NCBI GenBank assembly: GCA_964348665.1
Contig: CAYGDP010000002.1
Span: forward strand, 110,033-174,032
Source of the DNA: an uncultured Verrucomicrobiota bacterium
Lineage (GTDB): Bacteria; Verrucomicrobiota; Verrucomicrobiia; Palsa-1439; CAYGDP01
Direction: 5' to 3'
Length of the DNA: 64,000 bases
Shown here one piece after another: positions 20,323 to 63,750 of this stretch (positions within the stretch are counted from its first letter, which is position 1; each line of letters opens with the position of its first letter). The notes beneath the pieces are model-generated. The model worked only from the letters and a program-made list of their open reading frames with translations. It was not told the DNA's origin and made no database searches. The position numbers and the translations under genes were made by a program.

Positions 20323-20370
20323 TTTTCATTTACTTTCCGGGGTTTACGCGTAGATTGTCCGCGCTTCGGT

Positions 20371-20444
20371 CGGGGCGTAGCGTAGCTTGGTAGCGCGCTT
20401 GGTTCGGGACCAAGAGGTCGCGGGTTCAAATCCCGCCGCCCCGA
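20371..20444 (+). tRNA. tRNA-Pro (anticodon CGG)
   Basis: Hand-folded cloverleaf: acceptor stem CGGGGCG/CGCCCCG plus discriminator A; D arm GCGT-AGCTTGGTA-GCGC; anticodon stem CTTGG/CCAAG with loop TTCGGGA (U33, anticodon CGG, G37); T arm GCGGG-TTCAAAT-CCCGC. No encoded CCA. Confidence 0.85.
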
Positions 20445-20454
20445 TTTTTTTCAT

Positions 20455-20522: not shown

Positions 20523-21743
20523 ATGAAGCGTTCCTTTCTTGTCAGCGTTGGTTCCGTTAAAGTCCCTGTTTACGGATTTTCCGGGGGACGGTGGTGCATT
20601 AGTTATTATCAGGAAGGACGGCGACGCCGAGAAACTCGATCTTCCCGTGATGAGGCTCTCCGCCGCGCCAAAGAGGTCGCCGCCGCAATCCACAACCAGA
20701 AAGCTTCTGGGATTGCGCTCACGGGTGCTGACCGTGACGCCTATATGCGCTCGCTGGAAGTGCTCAAACCCTTCGGCGTAAGTCTCCATGAAGCGGTGGA
20801 AACGTATGCGAAGACCAGAGCCAAACTCCAAGCCGTATCGCTCAACGACGTGGTGGATTTTTATCTACGCCACAATCCGACTCGCTTGCCTGCAAAAACC
20901 GTCTCGGAAGTTGCCCAGGAGCTACTGGCCGCCAAGCAACGTGATCACGTAAGCGCCGCCTATCTGAAAGACCTTCGATCACGGCTGCCTCGCATCGGTG
21001 CTGCCTTCGCAATGCCGATCGGGCGAGTGACGCAAGGACAAATCGAGGATTGGCTGCGCTCTTTGCCGAGTTCATTGCGGACACGAAACAATTATCGCAA
21101 CCTCATCGTTATGCTTTGGCGGTTCGCGCGCCAGCGCGGATATCTATTAAGGGATCGGTCCACGGAAGCCGATTCGTTGCCGCGCGCCAAAGACAAAGGA
21201 ACTGAGATCGAGATTTTCCGTCCAAAAGATTTTGCGAAACTGATCTACAAAGCCGATGCGAAATTGGTACCCTTCCTTACCATCGGGGCATTTACGGGTC
21301 TTCGTCACGCCGAGTTGCTTCGCCTTGAATGGGAAGACATTCGTTTTTCTCAGGGGTTTGTCGAAGTAAAAGCGAGTAAAGCAAAGACGGCACAACGGCG
21401 ACTGGTGCCCATCCAATCCAACTTGGCAGCATGGCTCTCACCGTATCGGGAGCGGAAAGGAAAAGTCTGCCCATGGATTCGCGTCGGTCGCACCGTATCA
21501 AAGTTGGCGAAAGATATTGGCATCCGTTGGCCGCAGAATGGTTTGCGGCATTCGTATGCGAGCTATCGCCTTGCTCAATGTCAGGACGCCGCAAAGGTCG
21601 CATTGGAGATGGGGAACACTCCACAGGTAGTTTTCCGTCATTATCGAGAACTGGTCATGCCGCAAGATGCAGCTGCGTGGTGGAGTATTGTCCCCGAGCG
21701 AGCGGCGAATGTGGTATCAATGAGACGTCACCAAATCGGCTAA
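20523..21743 (+). CDS. int: tyrosine-type site-specific integrase
   Basis: C-terminal catalytic motifs 'GLRHAELLRL', 'LRHSYASY', 'VVFRHYRELV' (R..H..R..Y). Begins 79 nt after the tRNA-Pro. Confidence 0.9.
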   Translation: MKRSFLVSVGSVKVPVYGFSGGRWCISYYQEGRRRRETRSSRDEALRRAKEVAAAIHNQKASGIALTGADRDAYMRSLEVLKPFGVSLHEAVETYAKTRAKLQAVSLNDVVDFYLRHNPTRLPAKTVSEVAQELLAAKQRDHVSAAYLKDLRSRLPRIGAAFAMPIGRVTQGQIEDWLRSLPSSLRTRNNYRNLIVMLWRFARQRGYLLRDRSTEADSLPRAKDKGTEIEIFRPKDFAKLIYKADAKLVPFLTIGAFTGLRHAELLRLEWEDIRFSQGFVEVKASKAKTAQRRLVPIQSNLAAWLSPYRERKGKVCPWIRVGRTVSKLAKDIGIRWPQNGLRHSYASYRLAQCQDAAKVALEMGNTPQVVFRHYRELVMPQDAAAWWSIVPERAANVVSMRRHQIG

Positions 21744-21962
21744 TCTCAAAAGGCGCGTGTTTTGAAAAAAGTCTGGCTCGGCTGGATTCGGATTTGAACA
21801 ATACTCATCTGCACGAGGGCAAACCGCTTCCCGCTCGATTGGCAGTCATCGTGAAGTATTTTGCGTGAGGATTTATCTTGTGGCCGGTCTAATTTTCAAG
21901 AACACATTGCCGCATACCGAATGAACGTGATACTTTGAGCGCTCATCGCAGAGAGAATTATC

Positions 21963-22505
21963 GTGACTACCTCGACCAAGGAAGCAGGCGCGTTTCCCAC
22001 TGGGATCCACTGGTTTTGCGTCCATACCCGACCTCGCCAGGAAACGCTGGCCAAGGCCGCGCTGGAAGCCGACGGGATTGCGACCTTCTATCCGAGGTTC
22101 AAGATCAAAAAACGGAGTCGTCATTGGAAAATCTCCTCTCTGTTTCCCAGTTATATTTTCGCCCGTTTCGACGCGGTGGCGCAACTCTCGTGGGTGCGCT
22201 CGGCGCGAGGCGTTTTATACGTGGTAAGTTTCAAAAACTGGCCGGTGGCGGTCAGCAATGAGGTCATCGAAACAATTCGCTCCCGCTGCAAGAACGAGGT
22301 GGTGGATTTGACGGAGGTGGTCAATGAAAACTATCACACACTCCAGTCGGGCGACCGGGTGGAGGTCGAAGACGGGCCGCTCCGGGGAATGCGCGGGATT
22401 TTCCAGAGAAAAACTTCCGATGACGAGCGAGTGGTGATCCTGCTTAAGATTTTGGGATTGTCAGTCGAGGCGGAGTTGCAGCGAGAGGCGGTGGAACGGC
22501 TTTAG
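21963..22505 (+). CDS. specialised NusG-family transcription antiterminator paralog (RfaH/UpxY/LoaP-like)
   Basis: GTG start. N-terminal NGN-like 'IHWFCVHTRPRQETLAKAAL...FYPRF', C-terminal KOW-like 'GDRVEVEDGPLRGMRGIF'. 180 aa, no other transcription genes nearby, immediately upstream of an 18.5-kb gene. Confidence 0.7.
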   Translation: MTTSTKEAGAFPTGIHWFCVHTRPRQETLAKAALEADGIATFYPRFKIKKRSRHWKISSLFPSYIFARFDAVAQLSWVRSARGVLYVVSFKNWPVAVSNEVIETIRSRCKNEVVDLTEVVNENYHTLQSGDRVEVEDGPLRGMRGIFQRKTSDDERVVILLKILGLSVEAELQREAVERL

Positions 22506-22865
22506 ACGACGCGCCGATTGCTTTGAGCGCTAGAAAAAGCTTGTGTAGTTGTGATGGGTTGAAGTAGTTTCGCAGCCTTGTTGGGGCTGGAAGAAAGCCC
22601 AACAAAAAAAGAGCGTCCCTATTGCCGAGGGATGTGGACAGTGAGGTCTAGAGGAGATCGTGAGCAACGCACGAAATCGAAAGACTGGGGGTTGGCAGCC
22701 CGATGGAAATACGGGCGCGCCAATTTTGGCGGGAGCTTTTCCCTTTTTCACTCAGGCCATTGGTTAACGTAGTCCTTCATTTTTCTTCCACCCCCAAGAA
22801 TCCACCAGAGACAGGCAACAATGAGCGTGTGTGCCGGGAGCATGAATTAGACTGTAGAAGCGACA
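22506..22865 (+). promoter_or_regulatory. 360-nt untranslated leader between the NusG paralog and the giant gene
   Basis: No credible ORF. Long leaders carry the recruitment sites of specialised NusG paralogs in characterised systems. Confidence 0.3.
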
Positions 22866-25800
22866 ATGGAAACGGGTCAGAACAATCGGGATCAAGCGGT
22901 GGCTATTGCGCTGAAGGCGTTCGAGGAGAACGCCTTGCGCGAGGCCGTCGCCGTCTCTACGCCACCGGCAGAAGCGGGGATCACGCTGCGGTCAATGTTC
23001 CGAGGAACAACGACCTTCCGGGCGCTGGCCAGAAAGATCGCGACTCTCCTGCCCCGGGTAGCGCCCCGCCGAGAAAGCAAGCTTTTGCGCAAACTTCGCC
23101 ACTTCCAACGTCAGAAGGCTTGCTTGTCGCCGGCTGAAAACCATCTTCAACATCCTTCCTCGACGACGTCTGTTCCTCCAAGAGCGAATCCTAGCGAACG
23201 ACGTGGTATGCCATCACGTTTCACCGCGCCAATCCCACTGACAAGCCGGCTCAAACACCTCGTCTTGGGGAAATGGGGAACGAAGGACAAATCGCCACGG
23301 CGCAAACGCGAGCATCGGTTTCGTCGTGACTTGCGCTACGACCAGTCATTTGTCGCCGAATCGGCGGAACCGCGGCTGATGGCCGGTAGTTTGGCTGGCC
23401 CCAACATCCTAACCGTGATTGACGGCGTGGAAGGAAACGAGGATTGGACGATGGGACTGCCGGAGATCGTCGCCCTTGGAAATAGCCAAGCCGTCCCGCA
23501 AACCAGCGAAGCTCCCCACGCAGCGTCATCCTCCACTAATCATACCGAACCTATAGCCTCAAATGTAACGCTCCCGGCAAATGCCGAGACGACTGCGCAA
23601 GCGATCCAGAGCCTTCAGGAAACAGGGGAGTTTAACCCAGAAGAAGATATTGGATTGCCGTTTCTTAGCTCCGATTCTACATCTAGCGCTTGGAATCCAC
23701 TGAACCCTGATGTGACGGAGGCGTTGCTGTTCCAACTGGCTGAACTGCAACAGCTATTTGCATCTCGGAACGCCTTGGATACAGTAGCGCCCAAGACCCT
23801 CATTGCGCCTTTGGCTCTCGAACCGACGAGCGCCCAAACTGATTCTCAAATTGACCCGTCTCTATTGGCCGGTGATTCGCAAACATCGAACAGTGAGCCG
23901 ACAACGACCGGTTCCGGGTCAACGCCCCAGACAATTTCTCCCGTAACCAATCCCCAATCCTCTCCGACCGGTGATTCACCCGGAAATCGGGACCCTCCGC
24001 CTGATCCTCCTCCACCGGGATTGATTCGCATGGCTTGCTCCGGCTGGACGCTGGTGGAAAGCGGCGGCTCGGAGAGCGGTCGCGGGAGTTTCACGTCTGA
24101 ATCCGGAAGTCTGGCCTTACGAGAAGGAGATTCGTTCCTGGTCTCCATCCAGCGAGCTTTCACCATTCCGCCCAATCCGGCCACGCTGACCTTCACTCTG
24201 GACGAGCTTACCTTTGATACGACCGATCCTGATTTTATCAATGACGCCTTTGAAGCGGCGTTCCTGGACGCGAGCGGGATTTCGCTAGTCCCCGTTATTG
24301 CGAGCAGCCGCGATTCCTTCTTTAACGCCACCGAAGGCGAGCCAGTTGCGCTCGGTTCAAAGACAACCTTCTCCGACCCAACTGTTACGCTCAATATCTC
24401 TTCCTTGCCAGCGGGCAGCACGGGCATTTTGGCCCTCCGTCTGGTCAATAACGACAGCGACGTCAACACGCTGGCCCGCATCCATTGCAATACCCCGCCT
24501 CAAGTAACGGCCAACGACGGTGCGGCCAACGAAGGACAATCGCTGGAGTTTGTCGGCACGTTTATTGATCCGGACATCGGTGACACCCATACGGCGCTCA
24601 TTTCTTGGGGGGATAACACCACCAGCGAAGGAGTTGTCACCGCAACTCAAGACGGTGGGACGGTGACGGCCAGCCACGTTTATGCCGATAACGGCAACTA
24701 CACCATCACCCTGACCGTTTCTGACAACAATGAGGGAGTCGGTAGCGACTCCGCGACCGCCACGATTGCCAACGTAGCGCCTGCCGTCACCGTCGGTCCG
24801 AACCAAACCCACAAAGACAAGGAACTGGCGTTGGATTTTACCATCGGCACGTTTAGCGATCCGGGCTTCACCAGTCCTACCGCCGGCACCGAGGAGACGT
24901 TCACCGCTCTGATTGATTGGGGTGACGGCACCACGCCAAGTGAAGGAACTCTCACCGTTGTGCAAGGCTCAGAGGGCGTGCTTACCACCGGCACGGTTAC
25001 GGCCAACCACGTTTATCAAGGTGGAGGTGTTTACACGGTAACTCTCACGGTCACCGATGACGACCTTGACTCTGGTTCGGCCAGTTTCCAAATTACGATC
25101 CTGCCCACCAAATTCTTCGTTGTGGATCAGGATCGTCGCTCCACGTTCCGTTATGACCGCGACGGCGGATTTGTCAGCGAGTCTGATCTGGGCCAGTTTG
25201 ATTCCCGCCCCCGTGGCGTCGCCAGCGACAGCACAGGCGATACTCTTTGGGTGATTGACGCCAATAAGACCGTCTATGTTTATACCGGCGAGGGTGCCTT
25301 GCTGGGTTCCTGGCAGGACCCCGGCTTAAACCAACCGCAGGACATCACGACTGACGGCACCGACATCTGGATTATCGACACTCCCGACAACGTTGTTTAC
25401 CGCTACTCCGGCGCCGCCAGCCGTCGTTCAGGTTCGCAAGCTCCTGACGCCAGTTTCCCCTTGGTCGTAGAGGATCGCAATCCCACCGGGCTGGTCACCG
25501 ACGGATCGACGTTTTGGGTGACGGATAATTTCGATCATCTAAACAAAGTTTTCGTGTATGACATGACCGGTCAGCTTCTTGGTTCGTGGCTATTGGACCC
25601 CCTCAATGTTGACCCTAGCGGCATTACCCTCAATCCCAACGGGGGCAGCGACCTCTGGGTGGTGGATCGTCTGCGGAATGCGGTTTTCCACTACGCTGAG
25701 TCGCAAGATGTGCGAAGCGGCTCTCTTCTTGTCACGGATACGTTTGCCCTGGCAAATAACAACCGTCACCCGGAAGGCATCGCCGATCCGGAAGTTTTCT

Positions 25801-28800
25801 GGAACGTGGATAGCGATGGATTTTGGGACGATGCCGCCAATTGGGATACCGGCACGGTTCCCAGCCCCACCGATGATGTCATTATTGATCGGCCCACCGC
25901 AAACCCAACCGTTACTATTCGATTTGGCGCTCAATCAGTCAATAGTGTCACCAGCCATGAAGCTCTTGTGTTGTCGGGCGGCACTTTGAGTGTTGCCGCT
26001 CCTTCCGAAGTTAATAACACCTTTACTTTGAGCGGCGGCGATCTGACTGGCGCAGGTCCATTTACAATTAATAACACCATGGATTGGATTGCAGGCCGCC
26101 TGGTCAGCGGCGGTACACTCGTCATTGCCAACACCGCCACGCTCAATCTCATCAACAGCAATGATAAAGACGTTGTTGGTTCTACGCTCAACAATTTCGG
26201 GACGGCCAACTGGAACACTGGCCGCATCCGCACTGGCTCCGGCTCGCTGATTGCCAACAGCGGGCTTTGGATCGCCCAAGCCAACAATCAGATCTCTAAT
26301 GATTATGGTAATGCGCAATCTACTTTCTCCAATAGCGGCAGCTTCCAACACATCGGTAGTTCTAGCAGCCACATCTTTATTGTATATGATAACAACGGCA
26401 GTACCGATGCCACCAACGGCACGCTGCACTTGCGTGCTGGTGGCACTTCCAGCGGCAGCTTCAATGCTGCCAGCCCCGGTGCTCTCTTCTTTGGCGAAGG
26501 CACTCACATCTTGAACGCCTCCTCCTCGGTCAGCGGGAGCGGCACGGTGGGGATTTTCTCAGGCAGCACCATTGTCAACGGCACGTGGAGCGTCAGTGGC
26601 ATCACTGATTTGCAGGGTGGCACCATTGCCTTTAACACCGCCGCCAGTACTGCCACTGGCATCTTCCGCGGTAGTGATCTAGCCGGCAGCGACAGTCTCA
26701 CCGTCACTGACACGATGGACTGGAGCAGCGGTCGGATCGTCAGCGGCGGCACGCTCATCATCGCCAACACCGCCACGCTCAATCTCATCAACAGCAATGA
26801 TAAGGACGTCGTCGGCTCGACGCTCAACAATTTCGGCGCGGTCAACTGGTTCGTTGGTCGCATCCGCACTGGCTCTGGCTCGCTGATTAGCAACAGCGGG
26901 CTTTGGATCGCCCAAGCCAACAACCAGATTTCTAACGACTACGGCAACGCCCAGTCCACCTTCTCCAACTCCGGCAGCTTCCAACACAGCGGCAGCGGCG
27001 ACAGCCACATCTTCATCGTCTATGACAACAACGGCAGTACTGATGTCACCAGCGGCACTTTGCATTTACGCGGCGGGGGCAACAGCAGCGGCAGTTTCAA
27101 CGCGCCGACCCCGGGCCGACTCCTCTTTGGCGAAGGCACGCACACTTTGAGCGCCAGTTCCTCCATCAGCGGCTCAGGCACGCTTGGCATCTTCAGTGGT
27201 AGCGCCGTTGTCAACGGTTCCTGGACAGTCAGCGGCATCACTGATCTGCAAGGCGGCACGATCAGCTTCAATACGGCGGCTTCTACAGTGACAGGCATCT
27301 TCCGTGGCAGCGATCTGGCTGGCAGCGGCAGCCTGACGGTGAGCAATGCGATGGACTGGAGCAGTGGTCGGGTCGTCAGTGGCGGCACGCTCATCATCGC
27401 CAACACCGCAACGCTCAATCTCATCAACAGCAACGACAAAGACGTCGTCGGTTCGACGCTCAACAATTTTGGGACTGTCAATTGGAATGCTGGCCGCATT
27501 CGCACTGGCTCCGACTCGCTGATTGCAAACAGCGGCCTCTGGATCGCCCAGGCCAATAACCAGATTTCTAACGACTATGGCAACGCTCAGTCCACCTTCT
27601 CCAACTCCGGCAGCTTCCAACACAGCGGCAGCGGTGATAGCCATATCTTCATCGTCTTTGACAACAACGGCAGTACTGATGTCACCAGTGGTACCTTGCA
27701 TTTACGCGGCGGGGGCAACAGTAGCGGCAGTTTCAACGCGCCGACCCCAGGCCGACTCCTCTTCGGCGAAGGCACTCACACCTTTAGCGCTTCCTCCTCG
27801 GTCAGTGGCAGTGGCACGCTTGGCATCTTCAGCGGTAGCGCCATTGTCAACGGTAGTTGGATGGTCAGTGGCATCACTGACCTACAAGGCGGTACAATCG
27901 CCTTTAACACAGCAGCCAGCACCATCACTGGCATCTTTCGTGGCAGCGATCTCACCGGCACTGGTTCTCTGACGGTGAGCAATACGATGGACTGGAGCAG
28001 CGGTCGAATCGTCAGCGGCGGCACGCTCACTATCGCTAACACCGCCACCCTCAGTCTCATCAACAACAATGACAAAGACATCGTCGGTTCAACGCTGGCC
28101 AATTTCGGGACGGTCAACTGGCTCGCTGGCCGCATCCGTACTGGTTCTGGTGCGCTGATTAGCAATAGCGGTCTCTGGATCGCCCAAGCCAACAATCAAA
28201 TCTCTAACGATTACGGCAATGCCCAATCCACTTTCTCCAACTCTGGCGGCTTCCAACATAGCGGCAGCGGCGACAGCCACATCTTCATCGTCTATGACAA
28301 CAACGGCTCTACCGATGTCCCCAGCGGCACGCTGCACCTGCGCGGTGGCGGCAATAGCAGTGGTAGTTTCAGCACCACCTCACCCAGCGCGCTCTTCTTT
28401 GGCGAAGGCACCCACACTCTAACCGCCACTTCCTCGGTCAGCGGATCAGGCACAGTGGGCATCTTTAGCGGCAGCGCCATTGTCAACGGTTCTTGGGTGG
28501 TCAGCGGCACGACAGATTTACAGGGCGGCACCATCGCCTTTAATACAGCCGCTTCCACGGTGACAGGAATCTTCCGTGGTAGCGATCTCACCGGCTCCGA
28601 CTCTCTCACCGTCACAGATACGATGGACTGGCAGCGAGGTCGAGTAGTCAGCGGCGGCACGCTTGTCATTGCCAACACCGCCACGCTCAATCTCATCAAC
28701 AGCAATGACAAAGACATCGTCGGTTCGACGCTCAGCAATTTCGGGACTGTCAATTGGAACGCTGGCCGCATCCGCACTGGTTCTGGTGCGCTGATTGCCA

Positions 28801-31800
28801 ACAACGGGCTTTGGACAGCCCAGGCCAACAACCAGATTTCTAACGACTACGGCAACGCTCAGTCCACTTTCTCCAACTTCGGCAGCTTCCAACACACCGG
28901 CACGTCCAGCAGCCACATCTTTATTGTCTATGACAACGATGGCAGCACGCAAGTCACCAGCGGCACTTTGCATTTGCGAGGCGGGGGCAACAGCAGCGGC
29001 AGCTTCAACGCCACCAGTCCTGGCGCGCTCTTCTTTGGCGAAGGTACTCATACTTTGAGTGCCACTTCCTCGGTCACCGGCAGTGGCACGCTTGGCATCT
29101 TCACCGGCAGCACGGTGGTCAACGGCTCCTGGACAGTCAGCGGCACCACCGATCTGCAGGGCGGCACCATCAGCTTCAATACGGCGGCTACAACGGTCAA
29201 CGCCTTGCTCCGTGGCAGTGATGTTGCGGGCAGCGGCAGCCTCACGGTAAGCGGGACGATGAGTTGGACCGCGGGCCGGATCGTAAACGGAGCGACCTTG
29301 ATTGGGACTCACGGAGCGACCTTGAATCTGATCGGCGGGAATGAAGACATCGTTGGTTCGACCTTGAATAACGATGGAACTGTCAACTGGACCAGCGGCC
29401 GCATCCGGACCGGTTTCGGAACGCACATCAACAACGACGGCCTTTGGATCGCCCAAGCCAACAACGCCATCGTCAACGACTACGGCGGCGCGCAATCCAC
29501 TTTCTCCAACAGCGGCATCTTCCGCCAACAGGGCAGCGGCACAACCACGATTGCGATTGATTTTATCAACTTTGGCTCGGTCGAGATTCTGACCGGCACG
29601 CTTAGTTTCACCGGCGCTTATACCCAGACTGGCGGCGTCACCGCGTTGGAGGGAGGCAGTCTGAGTTCCACTCAAACTCTCACCATTCAAGGCGGCGTCT
29701 TGACCGGCATCGGAACGATCTTTGCCAACGTCGTAAACGGCGGCGAACTTGGACCGGGCGCTTCAATTGGGATGGACGTCGGCATCCTCAATCTCGCCGG
29801 CAATTATACCCAGACGACCACCGGCTCGCTGCATATTCAGCTCTTCGATGTTGGCGCGGGGATCGGGTTCGATCAATTCCGGGTCGCCGGCGCGGTGACT
29901 CTGGAAGGGGGCATCAACCTCGCCCTCGAATCCACGATACCCCTATCGGGAGAAATCATCTTCCTCGACAACGACGCGACCGACGGTGTGACGGGAACCT
30001 TCGTGGGTTTGCCCCAAAACACCTTTGTGATGCTCAACGACGACCTGTATCAACTTAGCTACAGCGGGGGCAGCGGCAACGACGTGAGCCTCCAACGCGT
30101 CGTGGGTATTACCATCACCAACGTCAGTCTTCCCGAAGGCGATTTGGGGATAACCGATTTCATCTTCACGGTCAGTCTGGACCAACCCGGCACCACGTCG
30201 CTAACTCTCGACTACGCCACCAAGGATGGCACGGCCACCTCCGCGCATGATTACGTGGCGACCACCGGCTCGCTCACCTTCGCGCCGGGCGAAGTCACCA
30301 AGCCGATCACCGTCCCGGTCAACGGCGACAACGCCAGCGCGACCGACGAGACGTTCTTTGTGGAGATCGTCAATCGCATCCTGGTGTTCTCGCCCAACAC
30401 CACCCGAATCGGCATCGGAACGATCCTCAATGACGACAACGAACTTTACGACGCCGAAGAACGATTCCTCTTTACCACGACGGAGGATTTCCACGAAGGA
30501 ACGCTCTCCTCCAACCTCACTGCGACCCAGGTGCCCGATGAAATGGGACTGATGGCGCAATTCCCCTTCTTCCCTTACGTGAACATCGCCGCATCCGCCC
30601 GGGGCACGATCATCCGTCTGGATGCCAACACGGGTGAGATTCTCGGCGAATACCTCACCGCGCCCGATGGGATGGGACGCAATCCCTCCGCGACCGCGGT
30701 GGACCTCTTGGGCAACGTCTGGGTCGCCAATCGCGATGAATCCTCGGATGGCAAAGGATCGGTGACCCGAATCGCCCTTGTCATCGGCGGCACGCGCGGC
30801 ATCAAAAATCCCGACGGCAGTTTCACGCCCGATCCCGGCGGCCAATATCTTCAAGGACCCTTCCTCTATTCCACGGCCATTGACCGCGATGGCGACGGCC
30901 TGATTAAAACCTCCTTTGGTCTGGGCAACATACTTGCCTGGAACAACGCCGGCGGGACGGATTCGCTGGGCGGCGTTTTCACGGCGGAAGACGAACTCAT
31001 CATCAATTACACCCGCGTCAGCGGCACCAGGACGGGCACCGTCGCCATTGACGGCAACAACGATCTCTGGGTGGGCGGCGTGGGCGATCACGACCACGAA
31101 AAAATCAGCGGCGTCACCGGTCAGCCGATTCCCGGCACCCAGTTTAACACCGGTCGCGCCGGCTTCGGCGGTCTGGTGGATCGCAACGGCGTGCTCTGGT
31201 CATCGAACTCGCTGATCCGCTTCGTTCCCAACGTCAATCCGCCGCCGGCGGGCACCAGCGCCAGCATCGGCAACAATTACGGAATCGCGACCGACCCGCG
31301 CACGGGTCACATCTGGATCACCAACGGCGGGATTGGATGCAGCTACGGTCTCTTCGAGTTGGATTCGGATGGCCGCGTGCTGAACCGCTACCCGCAACCA
31401 TTCCCCTCCCAAGGAGTGGCGGTGGACGCCAACAGCCACGTCTGGGTGGCGCAGATGTTTGGCTCGAAGGTTTGGCATCTTGCACCCGACCCCAACGATC
31501 CGACCCGACACATCACGGTCGGGTTTGTCACCGGCTTTCACGAGGTCAACGCGCTGGCGGTGGACCCGAATGGCAAGATTTGGGTCGCCGAACGAGGCAA
31601 TCGCGCCAGCCGCATTGATCCCAGCGCGGGCGACATCGGCGCAGGCGGTTACCCGGTGGGCGCGATTGAATTGAGCGTTGCTCTGGGTCTGGGGGCGGGT
31701 CCTGACAACTACAGCGACATGACCGGCTTTGTCTCGCACAGCTTGGTCCCGCAAGGCGTCTGGACGCACACCATTGACGGCGAACAAGACCGAACGGGCT

Positions 31801-34800
31801 GGGGAGTTGTCGTTGTGGACGCGACCATCCCCGTGGGGACAAGCATGGTGGTGCAAGTGCGCGCCGCCGACAGCTTGAGTGATCTGGCGAGCCTGCCCTA
31901 CATCACGATCCAGTCCGGCCAAATCCTCCACGACGTCGCCGGTCGGTTCTTGCAACTCAAAGTCACCGTCGTCTCCGAGGACGACGCCACTCGTCCGAGC
32001 GTGCAAGCGATCTCCATTTATAAATTGCCGCCGCCGACCATCACGGTCTCCAGCCCCGCCAACGGCGAGCGATTCGACGCGGGCAGTTCGATTCTGATTA
32101 CCGGCCTAGCCGCTTCCGGCCGTCCCTTTATCGCCGAGACGGGAACGCAGATTCCCAATCGGATCGCCACGGTCACCGCCAATGGAACGACCGTCGAGGC
32201 GCTGGACTTGATTGGGAATTTCTTCACCCGAGTCACGCTTTTGCCCGGCGAGAATGTTTATGAGTTTACCGCGTATGACGCCTTCGGCCAGAGCGTCACC
32301 GCAACGCTGACTCTCACCGGCGTGCAAGTGACGGCCGGCGACGTTGATTTCGCGCAGTTGACCGATGTTAGCCGCAGCTTCGTCAGTGAATATGGCCGCA
32401 CCTCGTTTACCGAGAGCGCCGACGTGTTGTATGCCGACCTTGACTCGATTCGCAGCATCGGCTCGTTTTACGTGGATGCGCCTTTCCTGCTCGGGGTGAC
32501 CAACTTCAGCGATTCAAGCGTGCAACTGGCCGACAGCGACGGGGTGACTCCCGATGGTATCGCGTACTACGACCTGAGCAGTCTGGTCATTGACGGCTCG
32601 ATCGCGCCCGGAGAACTGCTCGGCTCGCAAACGCTGGCCTTCTTCAATCCCAACCGCGTTCGGTTCACCTACGATCTGGTCTTCTTGGGTCGCCTCAATC
32701 GCGCGCCCGCGTTTACCACCGTTCCCGATCTTTCGGTTGCCCTGGGCCAGACCTATTCCTACCTCGCCGACGCTGCGGATCCTGATGTGAACCCGCTGAG
32801 CTTCTCGATTCTCTCCGGCCCCGCCGCGATGACCATCGAGAGCGCGACCGGCGCGGTGACGTGGACGCCGATCACAAGCGACCTCGGAACCCATTCCATT
32901 ACCCTTCAAGTCGCCGATGGCCGGGGCGGGTTTGGCCGGCAACATTACTTGCTCTCGGTCACTGCCGTTCCGCCGAATCGTCCGCCGGTCTTCACCTCGA
33001 TTCCAACGGTTGTTGGCAACGTCAACCTCACCTATAATTATTTGGCCACCGCAACCGACACGGACAACGACGCGCTGATCTTCTCCCTGCTTAGCGGGCC
33101 GCAAGGCTTGAGCGTCCATGCCAACGGTCTTGTCACTTGGACGCCCACCGCCGACCAGCTCGGAGTTCAAAATGTGGTTCTCACTGTTTCCGATGGCCAC
33201 GGCGGCGACGCCTTCCAAAGCTTCGCCATTTTCGTCAGCCAGGAACCGGGCAATCACCCGCCCGTGATCGTCACCCAACCGATCACCACGGGGTTCGCGG
33301 GAACCGCTTACACCTACGACGTGGATGCCCTTGACGCGGACAACGATTCTTTGACCTATTCCCTGACGACCTTCCCAGCGGGGATGACCATTGACGGAAT
33401 GACGGGATTGATTTCATGGAATCCAACGTTGAGCGACGTGGGAAATCACGTCGTCACCGTCCGCGTGAGCGAGAATCGCGGCGGGATCGGCGAACAGAGT
33501 TTCTTCCTCTCGGTTCAAGGGCAAGCCCCCGCCCAAATCCGCGGCGCGAAATTCAACGATCTGGACGGGAACGGCGTCCGCGCTTCCGAAGAACCCGGTC
33601 TTGCCAATTGGGCGATCTATCTAGATCAAAACGGCAATGGCCGGCGCGACTTTGGCGAGTCGGTCAGGCTTACCGATGTCAACGGAAACTATTCCTTCGA
33701 TAATCTTCTGCCCGGCGATTATCTCGTCGCCGAGGAAGCTCAGCGCGGGTTTAGCCAGACGGCTCCCCTGGGCGGAACATACGCGGTCAGCGTCGCCAAC
33801 GGCCAGATCGTCGCGGGACTGGATTTCGGCAACAAGCAGGTGGCGGTTGTGGAAGAGCAGCCGCCCTTCTTCGTGACCGAGCCGATTACTGAAGCGATTG
33901 CAAGCCAGACCTATCTCTACGAAGCCGCCGCGACCGATCCCAATTTCGATGCGCTCAGCTTCGATCTCCTGGTCAAACCCGCCGGGATGCTGGTGGATCC
34001 CGTAACCGGCGTCGTGATCTGGGAACCCACCGCCGCCCAGGTCGGTGTGCACGACGTCGTGCTGCGAGTTTCGGACGGCAACGGCGGCAGCGACGAGCAA
34101 TCCTTCCAAATCATCGTCAGCCCCGCCAATAACCCGCCTTCCATCACTTCGGTTCCATTCGGTCCCGCCTTGGTCGGCCTGCTCTACCAATATCAAGTCC
34201 GCGCGCAAGACGCCGACGGCGACGCGCTGACGTTCCAATTGGTGACTGCGCCCTCCGGAATGACCCTCTCTTTCCTCACTCCTCAATCCTCAATCCTCTC
34301 CTGGACGCCAACCTTCAGTCAGATTGGGACTCACGCCGTCGCCATCACCGTCGCCGATGGTCGTGGCGGAATGGACGCGCAGAGCTTTGATCTCGCCGTG
34401 GCCGTTGCCAATGACGCTCCTGCCATCACCTCGACGCCGACTGCCCCCGCCGTTGTCGGGTTCCCGTATCAGTATCAAGCGCGAGCTTCCGATCCCAATG
34501 GCGATCCGCTCACCTTCCGCTTGGACGTCGCCCCCTCGGGCATGGTGATTGATCATTTGAGCGGCCTTTTGACGTGGACGGCGACCGCCGATCAGGTCGG
34601 TACCAATCAAGTCAGCATCGCCGTGACCGATGGCCGGGGCGGGATCGCCACCCAGTCGTTTGGATTGCCCACCGTCACTGAAGCGGTCAACGACGCCCCT
34701 CAAATCACTTCCTCGCCTCCCGCGCCCGCCGTTGTCGGCTTCCCTTATCGGTATCAGGTGGAAGCATCCGATCCCAATGGCGATCCGCTCACTTTCAGTC

Positions 34801-37800
34801 TCGATACCGCTCCCAGTGGGATGACGATGGATAGCCAGACAGGGCTTGTCTCGTACACCGCTACCGCCGGTCAGGTCGGCAATCAACCCGTCGCCATCAC
34901 GGTCGCCGACGGTCGCGGCGGATTCTTTACGCAGTCGTTTGATTTGCCCGTGGTGACCAGCGCCCCAAATGACGCGCCAACCATTGTCTCCGAGCCGCTC
35001 GGCCCCGCCGTCGTGGATGCGCCCTATCGTTACCAAGTGGAAGCCACAGACGTAAATGGCGACCTGATTACGTTCCAACTCACCACCGCTCCCAGCGGAA
35101 TGCTGATTGACTCCGCCACGGGACTGATCTCATGGACGCCGACCGCCGCCCAGGTGGGAACCCAGAATGTCGCCGTCTCGGCTAGCGACGGTCGGGGCGG
35201 CGTCGCCACGCAGTCGTTTGGGCTGCCCGTCGTGACGCAGACGATCGCCAATGAGCCGCCTTCCATCAGTTCCACGCCGCGCATCAATGCCGCTGTTGGT
35301 TCGCTCTATCTCTATGCGGTCGTGGCCACCGATCCCAATCATGACGTCCTGACTTATTCTCTGCCAATCGCCCCCGCAGGCATGACGGTGGATGCCGATG
35401 GTTTGATCCGTTGGACGCCGACGTCCGCTCAACTCGGACCGAACTTTGCGCGGCTGGAAATCTCTGATGGCCGAGGCGCTATTGTGGGACAAGAGTTTAA
35501 CGTCAACGTCACCACCGAGTTCACCAATCAGCCGCCGATTATCGTTTCCAACCCGACGGGTTCAGCTCTTGTGGGTGATCTCTATCGTTATGACGCTGTC
35601 GCCTCCGACCCCGATCATGACCCGCTCACATGGACGCTGGTCAGCGGCCCGGCGGGAATGTCCATGGATTCGCAGCTTGGCTCGCTGCGTTGGACGCCCA
35701 ACGCGGATCAAGCAGGATTCCAACCCGCTGTCATCCAAGTCAGCGATCCCTTCGGCGGTTCTTCAACCCAAAGCTTCACGGTGGCGGTTCGCTTGGTCAA
35801 TATCGCCCCCAGCATTACTTCCACGCCGCTGACCAGCGCCGTGGTCGGCAAGACGTATGTTTATGCCGTCCGCGCCACCGACCCTGAAAACGATCCGCTG
35901 GCCTTCTTCCTGACCAGCGCTCCGGCGGGAATGACCATGGACGCGGGGACGGGATTGATCCTGTGGACGCCGACCAGCGCGCAGGCGGGCAGCGCGAGCG
36001 TCTCGGTGGCGGTTTCCGACGGGCAAGCCTTCTCTTCCCAAAATTATTCCATCACCGTGCTGGCCACGGCGGAGAATGCCCCGCCGGTGGTGACCTCCAC
36101 CCCGCCGTTCTTTGCGACGGTGGATACGCTCTACACTTATATTGTCACCGCCGTTGACCCGGAATCCGAGCCGATCACGTTCACGCTGACCGAAGCTCCT
36201 GCGGGAATGACGCTCACCCCAGTCACCAATAACGAGTCACAAATCACTTGGACGCCGTCTGCGGCGGACATTGGTTTCCACACCGTCTCGATCGTGGTGA
36301 CCGACCCGCATGGCGCGCCGAGCGCGCAGCGCTTCACCATCGGTGTGGCTGATCCCAACAATCCCAATCCGCCGATTGCGGATATTTCCAACATCGCGGA
36401 GAACCAAGTGGTGCGGGATGGATTGTTTGATCTGGTTGGCATCGCCAATGATCTCGACCCGACCGACGCGGTCTCTTACCAGTTGAGCCTTTTCCTGCCC
36501 GATGGCACGTTTGTCCGAGACATGACGCCCGCTCCGCTCAACGCGCAAGGCTTCCATGTGGGTCGGGTTTCCGGCGGTGACAATCTTGCCACGCTGGACT
36601 TCACGATGTTGGAGAACGGCGTTTACCAACTCGATCTGACGGTGAGAGGCGGCAACGATTTCGACTCGGACACCGTCACCTTCGCGTTGGACAGCAATCT
36701 CAAGGTCGGCCAGTTCGGTTTCTCACAGCAAGATTTGGTGATTCCTGTCAGCGGCATCCCGCTCTCGGTGATTCGCACGTACAACTCGCTCAATCCGAGA
36801 GACGGAGATTTCGGGTTCTCGTGGACATACTCGATCAGCGACGTGGAGTTTACCACCGATGAGTTCCGCGTCCCTGCCGAGGACATTGATGGCACAAACT
36901 TTAGCCTGCGCGACGGTGGCGGGCGCAACATCACTCTCACGCTCCCCGATGGGCGGCGGACAACGTTCGCGTTCTCGCTGACGCCCGGTCTTTCGGACGC
37001 TTCGGGTGTGTCTTGTTTCTGTTACCAAGCTTTCTGGACGGCCCCGCCCGGCGTCTATTACACCCTCCAACCGACCGTCTCCAATAAGCTCATCCAACTC
37101 CCCGGCCTAACGCCGTTCTGGGAAGCGGCGGGCTTGGGCACGCCGATGGATGCGTTTGATTTCAAGAGCTTCATCCTGACGGGCAAAGACGGCGCGCGGG
37201 TTGATCGTTCCGGCCACCGCACCGACGGCTTCCCGCTGGGCCACACCGCCACCGGCGGCACGCGCTACGTCATCGAGCGGGAAGATTTGGGTGAACACTT
37301 TGTCCTCACCGAGGAAGGCGCGAGCCTCTTCGTCCACACTTATGGCGAGGGGAAACTCACACAAGTCATTGATCGAAATGGGAACACGACGGTTATTAGC
37401 AACGATCAAATCGCTTCCTTTAATGCCTTGGGTGACCCAATACGTTTGATTACATTCGACCGGAATCCTGAAGGTCGCATCGTAGCCATTACTGACCCAC
37501 TGGGCGCACAAATGACTTATGAATATGACTCTTTGGGCAACCTCACCTCCGCAACCGACCGAGTTGGCAATACCACCCAATATGTCTATGGAAATCCCAG
37601 TTTATCGCACTACATTACAGAGATAATAGATCCACTTGGCCGAACAACCGCTCGGACGGAATATGATGATAACGGACGCATCATCGCTACGATTGACGCG
37701 AAGGGCAATCGTGTGGAGTTCAACTACGACTTGTCGGGACACACGCAGACAATTTTCAACGGGCTTGGTATCCCGGCAATTTACACCTATGACACGCGTG

Positions 37801-40800
37801 GGAATGTAACGGAGAGAACACAGTTCCTCGATGGCATGGCGGTTGTCAATCATTGGATTTACGACGGCAACAATAACTTACTCACCCACGTTGACCCTCT
37901 GGGCAATACGCGCAACTACACATACGATTCACAAGGGAACGTGCTATCGGTGACTGATCCTCATGGCGCAGACCAGAATCCTGAGGAGTTCACAATACGT
38001 TACACCTATGACGAGTTCGGTAATAGCACCAGCGTCATGCTGCCGACTGGAGCAGCGGAATTTTCGACGTATGACTCCAATGGGAATCTGCTGGCAATCA
38101 CCAATGAGGACGCCGTGGTGTTGAGTTCATGGACGTTCGACGCGGTGGGAAACACGACCTCCGAGACCGATGCGTTCGGGACATTCTCCTACCAATATGA
38201 TTCGGTCGGCAACAATATCAGCTTCACTGATTCCATAGGCAATACGATCACCAGCACCTACGATGCGAACGGCCAGATCACGACGATGACGGATAACGGG
38301 GTGACCTCGACATTCCAATACGACGAAAATGGTCGGGAGACATCCTCGGATTACGGCAATGGTATCACGGCCAACTATGGTTACAGTTTCCAAGACGAAT
38401 GGACGACGCTGGATGCACCGACAATCGGACATCTTGGGCGCGAGTTTGACGAAACAGGGCGGTTAGGCGGCTGGGAGTTGACGAACGGCAGCACGATAGA
38501 TTTCGATTACAACGCGGCGGGGCAATTGACCCAACAGGTTGATCCAATGGGGAACGTGACGCAATATGAATATGATGATCTAGGTCGTGTGGTTAGCGTC
38601 GTAGACGTGGCGACGGGTGCCGTGACGACGAAGGAATATGATCTCGCAAACCGCGTGATTCGGACTACGGATGCAGAAGGAAACTCGCAAACTTTCAGCT
38701 ACGGACCGGATGGCCGGCTCGCAGCGACGAGTGATGCGAATGGAAATGTCTTATTATACAGCTACACATTATTCACCACGTCTGTGACCGATCCGTTGGG
38801 ACGGACGACGACAACGGAGTTCTCGGAGCTTGGTGTGCCGATCCGCACGATCAATCCCGATGGGACGGAATCGAGCGCGAGCTACTTGGATGGGGTGATT
38901 GATGACCCCGATGAGTTCCCCACGTCACTGGTGGATGAAGGCGGTCATGTGCGGTCGTACACGTATGACGACGTTGGCCGACTTTCGACGGCAACGGATT
39001 TAGGCGGGAGCGTTTACAATTATAATTACGGGTTAGATGGTCTTTCTTCTATCCTTGGTCCCACCAGCGAGACGCTTGGCTTCACGTACGATATTATTGG
39101 AAATCGCAGCACGATGACCTTTGGGGATGGGGGCGTGCAGAGCTATTCCTACGGGGCGAACAATTTACCTTCTGTGGTAACGCTGCCGTCGGGCGAAACG
39201 ATTAGCCTCCTCTACGATGACGCAGGTCGCACGACCTCGCGTATGACTTCCGAGGGAGAATCTGCAACATACTCCTACAACGCCAATGACCAAGTTACCG
39301 TGCAGCAGGATAACACGGGCATTACCAGTTACACGTATGACGAAATCGGAAATTTGCAGCGCATTGATTATCCGACCACTGCGAGCGTCGAATACGGATA
39401 TGATTTGCTGGGACGCGTGATCTCTGTGACGGCCAAGGAATCTCCGACTGCGTTAGGTTACACAACGCTTTATCACTATAACGAAATCGGGAATCTCGAC
39501 CAAGTGACCGACCCGTTGGGTGGGGTGACGACGTATGAATATGATGAGGTTTATCGGCTAGGCAAACGAACATTGCCCAACGGAATCGAGACGACCTACG
39601 AATACAATGACAGCGATCAAGTGACAGTCATCATCCACAAGGATAGCGGCAGCAATGTGATTGCATCGCTGCGCTACGAGCGTCAGGGAATCGGTGAGCC
39701 AAGCAAGATCACGCGCGAAGACGACTCGTATGTGTTGCTCGGTTACGATAACGCGCTACGCATGACCAGCGAAGCCTATTTTGATCCCAACAACGTGCTT
39801 ATCGAGCAAATCACTTATCAATATGACGACGCGGGAAATCGGGTCGGCAGAACGACGGCGTTGGGAGCGAGCACATACAACTACCAGACGGGCTTCCGTC
39901 TCACAGCGGTGGACGGGCCAGGCAGCGATGATGAATCCTACAGCTATGATTCGGATGGAAACACAACCGCGATCAGCCGCGACGGATTGAATCTGATGCT
40001 AACTTATGACAGCTACGGACACGTGACAGGTGTGCAAGGGCTGGCGGGCGGCGCGACAGAAACGTATACCTATGACGCTATGGGTCGGCGCGTGGGAATA
40101 GCAAACGGAGCGGGTGACATTAGGAACTTCCTCGTCGCGCCGACATTGGCAGATGGACTTGAACAACCGTATCTGGTGACCGACGTCAGCGGCGCGGTTC
40201 AGATGGGCTACGCGTACGTAGGCGAGACGCCGTTGCTGCGCTTCGATGCCAGCGGCCAGCCAGTTTATTACCTTGACGACGCGATGGGATCAGTGATCGG
40301 ATTGGCGAACGCCAGCGGTCAAGGTGTTGCAAGCTTCCAATACGACGGCTTCGGAAATCCGCGAGTGGTAACCGGCGACTCTGCTGCACCCGCGACCATC
40401 GGTGGCGACTTCCGTTTTCACGGACAATGGCTTGACATCTCCACTCAGCTATATTCCATGCGTGCTCGCACTTACGACCCACAGACCGGTCGATTCCTCA
40501 GTCGCGACCCCATCGAAATGGACCAGTTCACACCCGAGATGATGAATTTCTACATCTTCGCAAACTCAAATACGCACCTCTTTCGCGATCCGAGTGGGTT
40601 GTTTTCACTAATCGAATTAAATTTGACGACACTAATCCAAGGTTTTCTACAAGGTATACGCGCGCTAGCTGTACATGAAGCTAAGCAGTATGTTAAGCAA
40701 CAGGCGTTTGGAGCGGCTGGTAGTTTTTTTGTTAACTCGATCGCTTCGTTCGTGCCAGGGCTCCATGAATTTGGAAGTAACCTGTCTTCGATAACTGGCA

Positions 40801-41399: not shown

Positions 41400-41601
41400 A
41401 AGGCGGCTTATGTCGGTAACACTATGGACATCGGTAGCACTCGATTTTTGGACATACGAGCCGGGCCATGGTCACAATGACAAATTTACCGAATTAAAAT
41501 CCGGTTCGTTGGATGCCCTCATAAGGTAAGGACAAAGAGCATGCAGCACATAAATGCAGAGTATCTTTGTAAAGATTAACCGTACTAAGGATAAAATAAG
41601 A

Positions 41602-42138
41602 ATGAATACGAATGATCCTTTCGGGAAAGTCATTTGGCAGGCTCAACAAGCGATAGACGACAGTGATTTCAATAAACTGAAAGACCTAATTGTTGAAAAC
41701 CTCTGGCTGAAAAATCCTTTGGAAGACACGGGGGGATCGCTCTTACACTACGCGGTAACGAACCGAAACCCTGGGGCTGTAGAATTCCTAATTTCCGAAG
41801 GTCTAGACGTAAACATGAAAGACCTAGAAAGTGTTAACACACCGCTCTTAATAGCGGTTGAAGAAGAAGACGCAGAAATAACAGAGTTACTCCTCCAGCT
41901 CGGCGCGGATGTAAACTGCCGAAATCCAAACGGGTGTACTCCTCTACACCTCGCAGCGAAGAGTGGGAATACTGAAATCGCAAAAATCCTGATTTTTTAC
42001 GAAGCGGATGTAAATGCTCGAGATATTTTCGACGGGTGGTCTCCCCTTGACTACGCGTTGGCAGAAGAACGATCAGGCGTTGCGGACATGCTTCGTAGGA
42101 GCGGGGCAAGACAGTTTGGCAAAGGGACCGACAAATGA
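41602..42138 (+). CDS. ankyrin-repeat protein, candidate immunity protein 1
   Basis: ATG at 41602 with RBS 'aagga'. Ankyrin repeats ('GGSLLHYAVTNRNPGAVEFLISEGLDVNMKD...', 'GCTPLHLAAKSGNTEIAKILIFYEADVN'). Immediately downstream of the RHS C-terminal module. Low GC. Confidence 0.7.
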   Translation: MNTNDPFGKVIWQAQQAIDDSDFNKLKDLIVENLWLKNPLEDTGGSLLHYAVTNRNPGAVEFLISEGLDVNMKDLESVNTPLLIAVEEEDAEITELLLQLGADVNCRNPNGCTPLHLAAKSGNTEIAKILIFYEADVNARDIFDGWSPLDYALAEERSGVADMLRRSGARQFGKGTDK

Positions 42139-42776
42139 GATTCCTGAAAAATTTTTTTGGATCGGTAAAAAAAACAGAGTCGCCGGCGGGTGGCACTGTT
42201 TTGGGGACGTTACTTCAAGCGAAGGAGGCGATTGACACGGAAAACGTTGTGACACTTGAGTCATTGTTGCGTAAACATCCCTCACTCGGCGAGGAACTTG
42301 ATGACTTGGGCTGGTCGCTATTGCATTATGCAGTGGCTCATTACAAGCTTCAGTCGATAGCGCGAATGCTCTCATGCGGATTGAACGTTAATATTTCCAC
42401 AAAGAATGGAAATTGTACGCCTTTGTTTTTTGCGTGTGCTGGGAATGGTCCAATAGAAATGGCACAACTGCTGATTGAACACGGAGCAGACGTTAATTGG
42501 AGAGACGAAGAAGGTGGAACAGCGCTTCATGCGGCAGCAAACCATAACCGAACAGACCTAATTACTCTTCTGATAGCAAAGGGATCTGAGGTAAATGTAA
42601 AAAGGAAGGCCGATGGATGGACTCCACTACATTGTGCAGATAATCTTGAGACGGTAAAGTTGCTCATAGAAAAAGGGGCAAATTCAGCAGCACGGGACAG
42701 GTGTCGACGCACGCGGATGGATATTGCAAGGGGAGCAAAGCAAAACGACATAGCCGAATTTTTGCAGAGATTGTAA
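42135..42776 (+). CDS. ankyrin-repeat protein, candidate immunity protein 2
   Basis: Start overlaps the previous stop (ATGA). Ankyrin repeats ('GWSLLHYAVAHYKLQSIARML', 'GNCTPLFFACAGNGPIEMAQLLIEHGADVN', 'GGTALHAAANHNRTDLITLLIAKGSEVN'). Confidence 0.7.
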   Translation: MRFLKNFFGSVKKTESPAGGTVLGTLLQAKEAIDTENVVTLESLLRKHPSLGEELDDLGWSLLHYAVAHYKLQSIARMLSCGLNVNISTKNGNCTPLFFACAGNGPIEMAQLLIEHGADVNWRDEEGGTALHAAANHNRTDLITLLIAKGSEVNVKRKADGWTPLHCADNLETVKLLIEKGANSAARDRCRRTRMDIARGAKQNDIAEFLQRL

Positions 42777-63645: not shown

Positions 63646-63750
63646 TGTGGTCCTTTCTAAGGGAGCTTTTTGTAATTGTCCTCCACATATCCTGCGGACT
63701 TGCAACTCTCAACGCTCTCCATGAGATTTTCGCTCATGATAAAATTCTCT

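Follow-up and report, generated by a model that had tools for sequence, protein, structure and literature searches.

The sequence analysed (the window) is a 64,000-nucleotide stretch of contig CAYGDP010000002.1 from an uncultured Verrucomicrobiota bacterium. It contains a gene for a 180-aa specialised paralog of the elongation factor NusG, located between an integrase gene and a single giant open reading frame (ORF). The features of the locus are as follows.

20370..20445, plus strand: tRNA-Pro(CGG), predicted by ARAGORN (Rfam tRNA 68.9 bits); left edge of the block common to a second assembly
20523..21743, plus strand: tyrosine recombinase/integrase of 406 aa (Pfam Phage_integrase, 1.4e-08)
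21963..22505, plus strand: RfaH-like specialised NusG paralog of 180 aa with NGN and KOW domains (Pfam, NCBIfam, AlphaFold2 (AF2), Foldseek)
22506..22865, plus strand: spacer or leader of 360 nt between the paralog and the giant gene
22866..41399, plus strand: giant ORF of 18,534 nt encoding 6177 aa
41554..42138, plus strand: ankyrin-repeat protein of 194 aa, candidate immunity protein (Pfam Ank, 1.8e-28; GC 0.456)
42135..42776, plus strand: second ankyrin-repeat protein of 213 aa, candidate immunity protein (Pfam Ank_2, 1.1e-27; GC 0.460)

The paralog, the spacer, the giant gene and the two ankyrin-repeat genes form, in that order, a co-directional block of approximately 20.8 kb, with the unit 3' of the spacer spanning 22866-42776. 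It is part of an island marked by the tRNA-Pro and the integrase. The two ankyrin ORFs overlap by 4 nt and are on the same strand as the giant gene. No further co-directional target was present before the strand switch near 43.9 kb and the paralog is the sole co-directional regulator ahead of the giant gene. The paralog ORF starts with GTG and no other start codon is available ahead of the conserved Trp17. The ATG of the giant ORF at 22866 is the first possible start past the upstream in-frame stop. All matches of the integrase to Xer-like models of NCBIfam were under the cut-offs of those models. The secE-nusG-rplK neighbourhood was not present at the paralog, whose neighbours are the integrase and the giant gene, and no polysaccharide genes were found 3' of it. 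An earlier note on this DNA had described a stand-alone 180-aa NGN+KOW protein placed after an integrase and before a 360-nt leader and a single 18,534-nt ORF. These coordinates and sizes proved exact, with Pfam, AF2 and Foldseek agreeing on the domains, and no other transcription genes were seen among the neighbouring genes, as the note had reported.

Pfam matched the NusG NGN family (PF02357) to residues 16-106 of the 180-aa protein over the full length of the profile (E=1.5e-14), together with a weak KOW2_Spt5 match (E=0.0065). The top-scoring NCBIfam family was RfaH (TIGR01955) with 97.9 bits against a cut-off of 144.5, followed by UpxY (NF033644; 81.6 against 100), LoaP (NF033641; 41.5 against 125) and NusG (TIGR00922; 41.2 against 135.7). 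All four scores were under the curated cut-offs. A 26-sequence family profile, combining the protein with 25 relatives, was compared to the Protein Data Bank (PDB). It matched RfaH at 1.9e-30 and NusG at approximately 5e-17 and aligned to the KOW domains of both. The AF2 model had a mean predicted local distance difference test score (pLDDT) of 89. It comprised an NGN domain (pLDDT >90) and a KOW domain modelled as a five-stranded beta-barrel (residues 132-179, pLDDT 87-94). Foldseek matched the model to RfaH and NusG structures with root mean square deviations of 1.6-2.3 A for the NGN domain. Both the PDB profile search and Foldseek also matched 9IK0 (PrfaH). Judged by profiles and model, the protein is an RfaH-like specialised NusG paralog, and by its scores it is neither a housekeeping NusG nor a member of the curated RfaH, UpxY or LoaP families. 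It adds a divergent member to a kind of protein that is already known. The RfaH-type assignment had been made in the earlier note from the letters alone. It was borne out by the NCBIfam ranking, the PDB profile search, AF2 and Foldseek, and the profile search and structure prediction proposed there as a check recovered the NGN/KOW fold.

Alignment to E. coli RfaH showed a common LFPxYxF(A/V)xFD core, and all ten invariant family residues were kept in the paralog. The equivalents of RfaH R73, I93, F130 and R138 were retained (R82, an Ile, F147 and an Arg) and K10 was replaced conservatively by R23. In RfaH the residues K10, H20, R23 and R73 contact the operon polarity suppressor (ops) element (PMC5995543). 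Two of the four equivalents in the paralog were conserved or conservative and the other two were Ala. RfaH H20, R23 and Q24 are among the residues forming the pocket for ops base T6 (PMC5995543). These correspond to A33, A36 and D37 in the paralog while R73 is kept as R82, meaning that three of the four equivalents of the base-6 pocket are unlike RfaH. Two of these positions are also unlike the closest relatives. The RfaH autoinhibition residue E48, which forms a salt bridge with R138, is replaced by Ser. The KOW domain of the paralog is predicted by the model in the non-autoinhibited (beta-barrel) form.

The giant protein begins with an N-terminal region without a family match. This is followed by PKD and Calx-beta domains, arrays of He_PIG, Big_9 and Cadherin-like domains, DUF6531, RHS repeats, a DPSGL motif and a C-terminal region. 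Pfam identified 12 He_PIG, 12 Big_9, Cadherin_5, and 14 RHS repeats (E=2.4e-93) in addition to PKD, Calx-beta and DUF6531. The DPSGL motif (FRDPSGLF) precedes a C-terminal region of approximately 270 aa without a family match, and a Pfam search with the last 299 aa gave no match. The predicted protein carries the marks of an RHS polymorphic toxin, namely the RHS/YD shell, DUF6531 and a C-terminal DPxGL motif. The toxin end and the ankyrin genes (40600-42776) have a GC content of approximately 0.45-0.46 compared to 0.574 for the whole giant gene, which is consistent with an exchanged toxin/immunity cassette.

The paralog formed a one-member cluster. Its nearest relatives were approximately 44% identical and came mostly from Verrucomicrobiota metagenome-assembled genomes. 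In total 166 relative loci were compared, 86 mainly from representative genomes and 80 from metagenomes. The three closest relatives with examined context were arranged as a MarR-like gene, the paralog, Wzm and Wzt, followed by glycosyltransferases and sugar-nucleotide enzymes. More distant relatives preceded Bac_transf, UDP-glucose dehydrogenase or Poly_export genes. No ORF of more than 1500 aa was found within 10 kb of the paralog in the 86 mainly representative-genome loci. The sole large neighbours in the 80 metagenome loci were non-ribosomal peptide synthetase (NRPS) genes of 1937, at least 2270 and at least 2397 aa at three loci. Members of this clade are recurrently encoded at the head of long operons or before very long genes, and NRPS megasynthases represent a second class of very long target genes. 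The NRPS-linked relatives (35-45% identity) are located at L151 2373-8908, L140 1899-12359 and L119 9974-20431. The NRPS gene is directly next in L151. HlyD and ABC-transporter genes lie between in L140 and ABC-transporter and thioesterase genes in L119.

An ops-like element with the clade consensus GGCGG(C/T)AGCnTG adjoined the paralog gene (within approximately 1 kb) in 27 of 83 loci, compared to approximately one site expected by chance. It was present on the plus strand anywhere in 39 of the 80 metagenome loci. Overall, such a near-canonical element accompanies the paralog gene in approximately 40% of relatives. It departs from the E. coli ops (GGCGGTAGnnTG) mainly in having C at position 6, and in one relative it reads GGCGGTAGCCTG. 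Two of the NRPS-linked relatives have elements varying in the 3' part (TGCGGCAGCTTTG and GGCGGTAGTGAG). In the Verrucomicrobiota clade the element is located just 5' of the paralog gene with conserved hairpins before it. In eight loci it is located between the paralog stop and the next gene, 30-90 nt before the latter, which is the geometry of the window. These eight loci (L015, L016, L021, L024, L038, L041, L043 and L044) have the element approximately 540-665 nt after the start of the paralog match. Their genomes are labelled Nitrospirota, Acidobacteriota, Gammaproteobacteria (including Thermomonas), Methylacidiphilales and Akkermansia and, where checked, the element was directly before the first biosynthesis gene. 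The distribution of these elements suggests that ops-type recognition is conserved well beyond enterobacteria.

The Verrucomicrobiota polysaccharide loci share a conserved leader. It consists of a hairpin CCTTCG-N7-CGAAGG with variable loop and flanks, then a second stem CAGGTGCC...GGCACCTG showing apparently compensatory changes, and then GGCGGCAGCTTG. It was located at L004 9848-9975, L008 6388-6515, L013 7165-7292, L023 6809-6936, L084 9903-10030 and L088 9861-9988, among others. No Rfam family, JUMPstart included, was matched by the leaders of three relatives and only chance microRNA matches were returned. A mir-3688 match at L084 2506-2587 (46 bits, under the gathering score, on both strands) is probably a long palindromic hairpin unrelated to the finding. 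Alignment of the whole window spacer to the conserved leader was limited to the ops-like core.

The features predicted in and around the spacer of the window are as follows.

21933..21943, plus strand: 11-nt direct repeat CTTTGAGCGCT, copy 1, 20 nt before the paralog start
22521..22531, plus strand: 11-nt direct repeat CTTTGAGCGCT, copy 2, 16 nt after the paralog stop
22578..22596, plus strand: left arm of a 19-nt imperfect inverted repeat, 17/19 (89%) complementary
22728..22739, plus strand: candidate ops-like site GGCGGGAGCTTT, 10/12 positions of GGCGG(C/T)AGCnTG
22731..22753, plus strand: weak terminator- or pause-like hairpin GGGAGCTTTTCCC followed by TTTTTCAC (T-run), 5 pairs of which 3 are G-C; may be chance
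22782..22800, plus strand: right arm of the 19-nt imperfect inverted repeat
22833..22844, plus strand: second degenerate ops-like site GCCGGGAGCATG, 22 nt before the ATG, sharing G at position 6 with GGCGGGAGCTTT
23382..23393, plus strand: near-canonical E. coli-type ops GCCGGTAGTTTG, 517 nt inside the giant ORF, one mismatch (G2C) to GGCGGTAGnnTG

A position weight matrix built from 24 clade ops-like sites was used to scan approximately 128,000 positions. Site GGCGGGAGCTTT at 22728 ranked fifth, with a probability of approximately 0.01 that so high a score would land in the spacer by chance. The mismatch of GCCGGTAGTTTG, G2C, is the only ops substitution tolerated in E. coli (PMC5995543). The spacer holds candidate loading sites by sequence, none of them canonical. 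This is what remains of the earlier expectation that the leader should hold the recruitment element: degenerate candidates were found while a consensus-grade site, an Rfam match and an unusual fold were not. Rfam matched only the tRNA in the window region that includes the spacer. The fold of the whole spacer was not significant compared to shuffled sequence (z=-0.03), nor was that of the segment bracketed by the inverted repeat (z=-1.25). A local enrichment of ops-like sites with at most two mismatches was considered and rejected, as repeated Ig-domain coding sequence gives denser clusters.

Five terminator-like sites were present in the scanned region 21600-23200 compared to 2.2 expected from shuffles, which is barely above expectation. 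The single one between the paralog and the giant gene on the plus strand is the weak hairpin at 22731-22753, which overlaps the ops-like site at 22728. The 19-nt inverted repeat was the sole pair found at up to three mismatches (0.01 expected) and has no further copy in the window. Its arms pair in the minimum free energy and centroid folds and enclose 185 nt of spacer including the first ops-like site. The left arm can instead form a local hairpin with 22599-22608, after which there is an A-run. The repeat could be a long-range RNA helix competing with the local hairpin, or the ends of a small inserted element. The direct repeat CTTTGAGCGCT contains the palindrome AGCGCT and its exact pair brackets the paralog ORF (approximately 0.14 expected by chance in the region). 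It could be an operator pair or a scar of cassette insertion.

The paralog probably acts as a cis-acting processivity (anti-termination) factor for the transcription unit of the giant gene. This reading is based on its placement in an RfaH-like clade whose members head long units with ops-like elements alongside. It is also based on the giant and ankyrin genes being the only co-directional genes downstream, with no convincing terminator before the giant gene. Thirdly, the predicted beta-barrel KOW and the loss of E48 match monomorphic RfaH homologs. The giant gene would be the target and would be co-transcribed with the paralog. During passage of RNA polymerase through the spacer, the NGN domain of the paralog would bind to it. 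The loading site could be a degenerate ops-like sequence in the non-template strand, either GSCGGGAGC at 22728 or 22833 or GCCGGTAG at 23382. Alternatively loading might need no sequence specificity, with the paralog made from the same transcript and not autoinhibited. Once bound the paralog would exclude housekeeping NusG. Pausing and Rho-dependent premature termination would be suppressed and the lead ribosome would stay coupled across the 18.5-kb ORF, allowing expression to extend to the toxin-coding 3' end and to the ankyrin genes that follow. Bound RfaH excludes NusG, blocks Rho-dependent termination, reduces pausing and keeps the ribosome coupled (PMC7593976, PMC7819879).

A number of observations weigh against a role in cis on the giant gene. 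The spacer (22506-22865) has no exact GGCGGTAG and hence no canonical ops, as had been noted before. Site GGCGGGAGCTTT has a matrix score of 6.9 compared to 18.9-21.5 for the training sites and breaks positions 6 and 12, which are invariant in them. Almost every ops base matters in E. coli (PMC5995543), which counts against degenerate sites. GSCGGGAGC, a pattern defined post hoc, occurs six times in the window compared to 1.9 expected, with two of the six in the spacer. One-mismatch matches to GGCGGTAGnnTG are at chance level (four in the window compared to 3.1 expected). No sigma-70-type promoter was found in a scan of 21600-23200. The beta-KOW prediction rests on a 26-sequence alignment and is no proof against fold switching. 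Two ideas on the giant gene were rejected. Its mRNA is not unusually C-rich and Rho-prone, as the skew (-0.059) is within the range of neighbouring genes and 8% of its windows are rut-like compared to 5% elsewhere. Nor is the giant gene unique in being without a Shine-Dalgarno sequence, as most genes here have no obvious one.

Co-occurrence also gave no support. The earlier note had proposed testing whether this paralog co-occurs with giant RHS genes in related genomes, and none of the 166 relative loci had an RHS or Ig-array giant gene beside the relative. The pairing of paralog and RHS/Ig giant was seen once, in one lineage, with no independent second instance. Relatives of the middle region of the giant protein, P0099 (an RHS protein) and P0077, had no NusG paralog upstream in the available sequence. 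The same was true of P0090, whose 5' end is cut. The N-terminal 545 aa of the giant protein had three partial relatives only and no full-length one. The test is considered uninformative rather than negative because the databases hold no true orthologs of the paralog.

A more specific form of the cis-acting role is tentative and is regarded as doubtful. It describes a portable processivity cassette, in which an RfaH-like factor free of autoinhibition would have shifted its target from polysaccharide operons to one 18.5-kb RHS toxin gene. Loading would take place in cis co-transcriptionally, or else at an ops variant of altered specificity with a purine at position 6 (GSCGGGAGC), to which a larger pocket for base 6 (Ala, Ala and Asp for H20, R23 and Q24) would correspond. 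With such a cassette, if real, expression of a giant foreign gene would be possible in any host that the island enters.

It is unlikely that the paralog still has the role ancestral to its clade and acts in trans on ops-bearing polysaccharide or other operons elsewhere in the genome, having come to lie beside the giant gene by chance as the island was assembled. Most relatives with annotated context do head polysaccharide operons and the spacer ahead of the giant gene is without a consensus site. Canonical clade-type ops sites also exist and a perfect one, GGCGGCAGCGTG, is located in the window at 15632-15643 on the plus strand (approximately 0.1 expected). However, this site is antisense inside dnaE, consistent with chance, and is probably a coincidence. 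The relatives are always encoded at their target and never away from it, and a factor with the non-autoinhibited form modelled by AF2 is expected to act in cis (PMC13015549). The base-6 pocket changes A33, A36 and D37 argue in addition against reading of the clade consensus.

Quite improbable is a role as regulator of the mobile element, in which the paralog would serve transfer or maintenance genes of the island and not the toxin, like plasmid-borne RfaH-like factors driving long conjugation operons. The paralog does follow the integrase directly, and the right side of the window has a second integrase, ArdC, a single-stranded DNA-binding protein (SSB), RadC, a HerA-like ATPase and a DNA ligase. 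Plasmid-borne PrfaH works via an ops-like site (PMC11880322). No long co-directional transfer operon is present, however, and the next 20 kb on this strand consist of the giant and the two ankyrin genes. Genes past 43.9 kb are mostly on the opposite strand or in short mixed units, and the window showed neither type IV secretion nor relaxase genes. A functionless remnant carried along with the island is very improbable. The gene is a singleton without close relatives, begins with GTG and has no recognisable promoter, but its ORF is undamaged over the full length, keeps the ten invariant residues, gives a confident two-domain model and is identical in three assemblies.

The cis-acting processivity role was compared to known systems. 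E. coli RfaH (TIGR01955; PDB 2OUG, 5OND, 8PHK) shares with the paralog the NGN+KOW architecture, the core and key residues and the top profile match, and relatives of the paralog adjoin elements almost identical to ops. RfaH acts on unlinked operons whereas the paralog, which scores under the equivalog cut-off, is encoded beside its presumed target and has a downstream leader without canonical ops. The KOW domain of RfaH is an alpha-hairpin and that of the paralog is a predicted beta-barrel, with E48 changed to Ser and H20, R23 and Q24 to Ala, Ala and Asp. Approximately 95% of RfaH proteins are proteobacterial (PMC7593976), whereas the host here belongs to the Verrucomicrobiota. The closest functional analogy is to monomorphic RfaH homologs with a beta C-terminal domain, which are predicted to be constitutively active and cis-acting beside long operons (preprint PMC13015549). 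The paralog resembles these in its AF2 model of the active NusG-like state and in having a long operon immediately adjacent. Their operons are many-gene lipopolysaccharide (LPS) or secretion-system operons, in contrast to a target here of essentially one 18.5-kb gene, and the activity of the paralog is a prediction.

Salmonella RfaH is required for the giant adhesin SiiE (5,559 aa) of the sii locus on Salmonella pathogenicity island 4 (SPI-4) (PMC7593976, PMC7819879). Both cases would link a NusG paralog to a horizontally acquired giant surface-protein gene, although the link is inferred for the window. Salmonella RfaH is chromosomal and acts in trans on many operons, unlike the paralog, which is island-borne and directly upstream of the gene. 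SiiE is an adhesin of a type I secretion system while the giant product here is a predicted RHS-type toxin. The idea of a NusG paralog for a giant gene is therefore not new in kind, Salmonella RfaH being required for the SPI-4 adhesin. UpxY (Bacteroides) and LoaP/TaA-type factors head a single long capsule or polyketide synthase (PKS)/NRPS locus, and the relatives of the paralog likewise head polysaccharide and NRPS genes. The paralog differs in scoring under the UpxY and LoaP cut-offs and in belonging to another phylum. In contrast to LoaP, which uses an RNA element, its relatives carry a DNA-type ops-like motif. PrfaH of IncX plasmids is a mobile-element paralog using an ops-like site near its own gene (PMC11880322). 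The window paralog is similarly carried by a mobile element, as are PrfaH (PDB 9IK0) and ActX, but no conjugation operon follows it.

The arrangement varies the established themes of cis-encoded UpxY, LoaP, monomorphic RfaH and RfaH with SiiE. An island-borne paralog directly upstream of a single RHS giant gene was not found in literature searches. Bacterial genes of 15-20 kb are expected to be very vulnerable to Rho polarity, pausing and foreign-DNA silencing, and their expression is seldom addressed. If the cis-acting role holds, one island would bring along a giant toxin gene together with a dedicated elongation factor. The targets of NusG paralogs (capsule, LPS, conjugation, PKS/NRPS, adhesins) would then extend to RHS polymorphic toxins and to the Verrucomicrobiota. 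The locus would also be a compact system for studying cis-acting and possibly ops-independent recruitment. A side result that may prove useful more widely is the presence of near-canonical ops-like elements beside RfaH-like genes in genomes labelled Verrucomicrobiota, Nitrospirota, Acidobacteriota and Gammaproteobacteria.

The locus was compared to a second assembly (ERZ27247830, locus L002). The tRNA-Pro, the integrase, the paralog and the first 9.6 kb of the giant gene were base-identical to the window over the compared length. The identity begins at the 5' end of the tRNA (window 20371 onward) with the breakpoint exactly there. The left flank, L002 1-239, is unrelated to window 20132-20370 and a 56-aa hydrophobic ORF replaces the PIG-L gene. 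The block therefore occurs in two contexts with two different left flanks. The exact giant protein was called in three public assemblies and the paralog sequence was likewise identical in three. Mobility of the island, as proposed in the earlier note, is partly supported by the unrelated left flank, while no attachment-type repeat of the tRNA 3' end (at least 12 nt) and no right-hand island boundary were found in the window.

The right-hand region (43897-64000) has a lower GC content of approximately 0.50 and looks like a mosaic of mobile DNA. It encodes DUF7309/DUF6930, PRiA4_ORF3, a HerA-like ATPase, a methyltransferase with a spermidine-synthase-like gene, SSB and RadC. A WGR-domain ATP-dependent DNA ligase and ArdC fused to a metallopeptidase are also encoded, along with the following two features.

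47808-48950, minus strand: second integrase
62002-63705, minus strand: 567-aa protein with a MafB19-like deaminase domain, which may be another toxin

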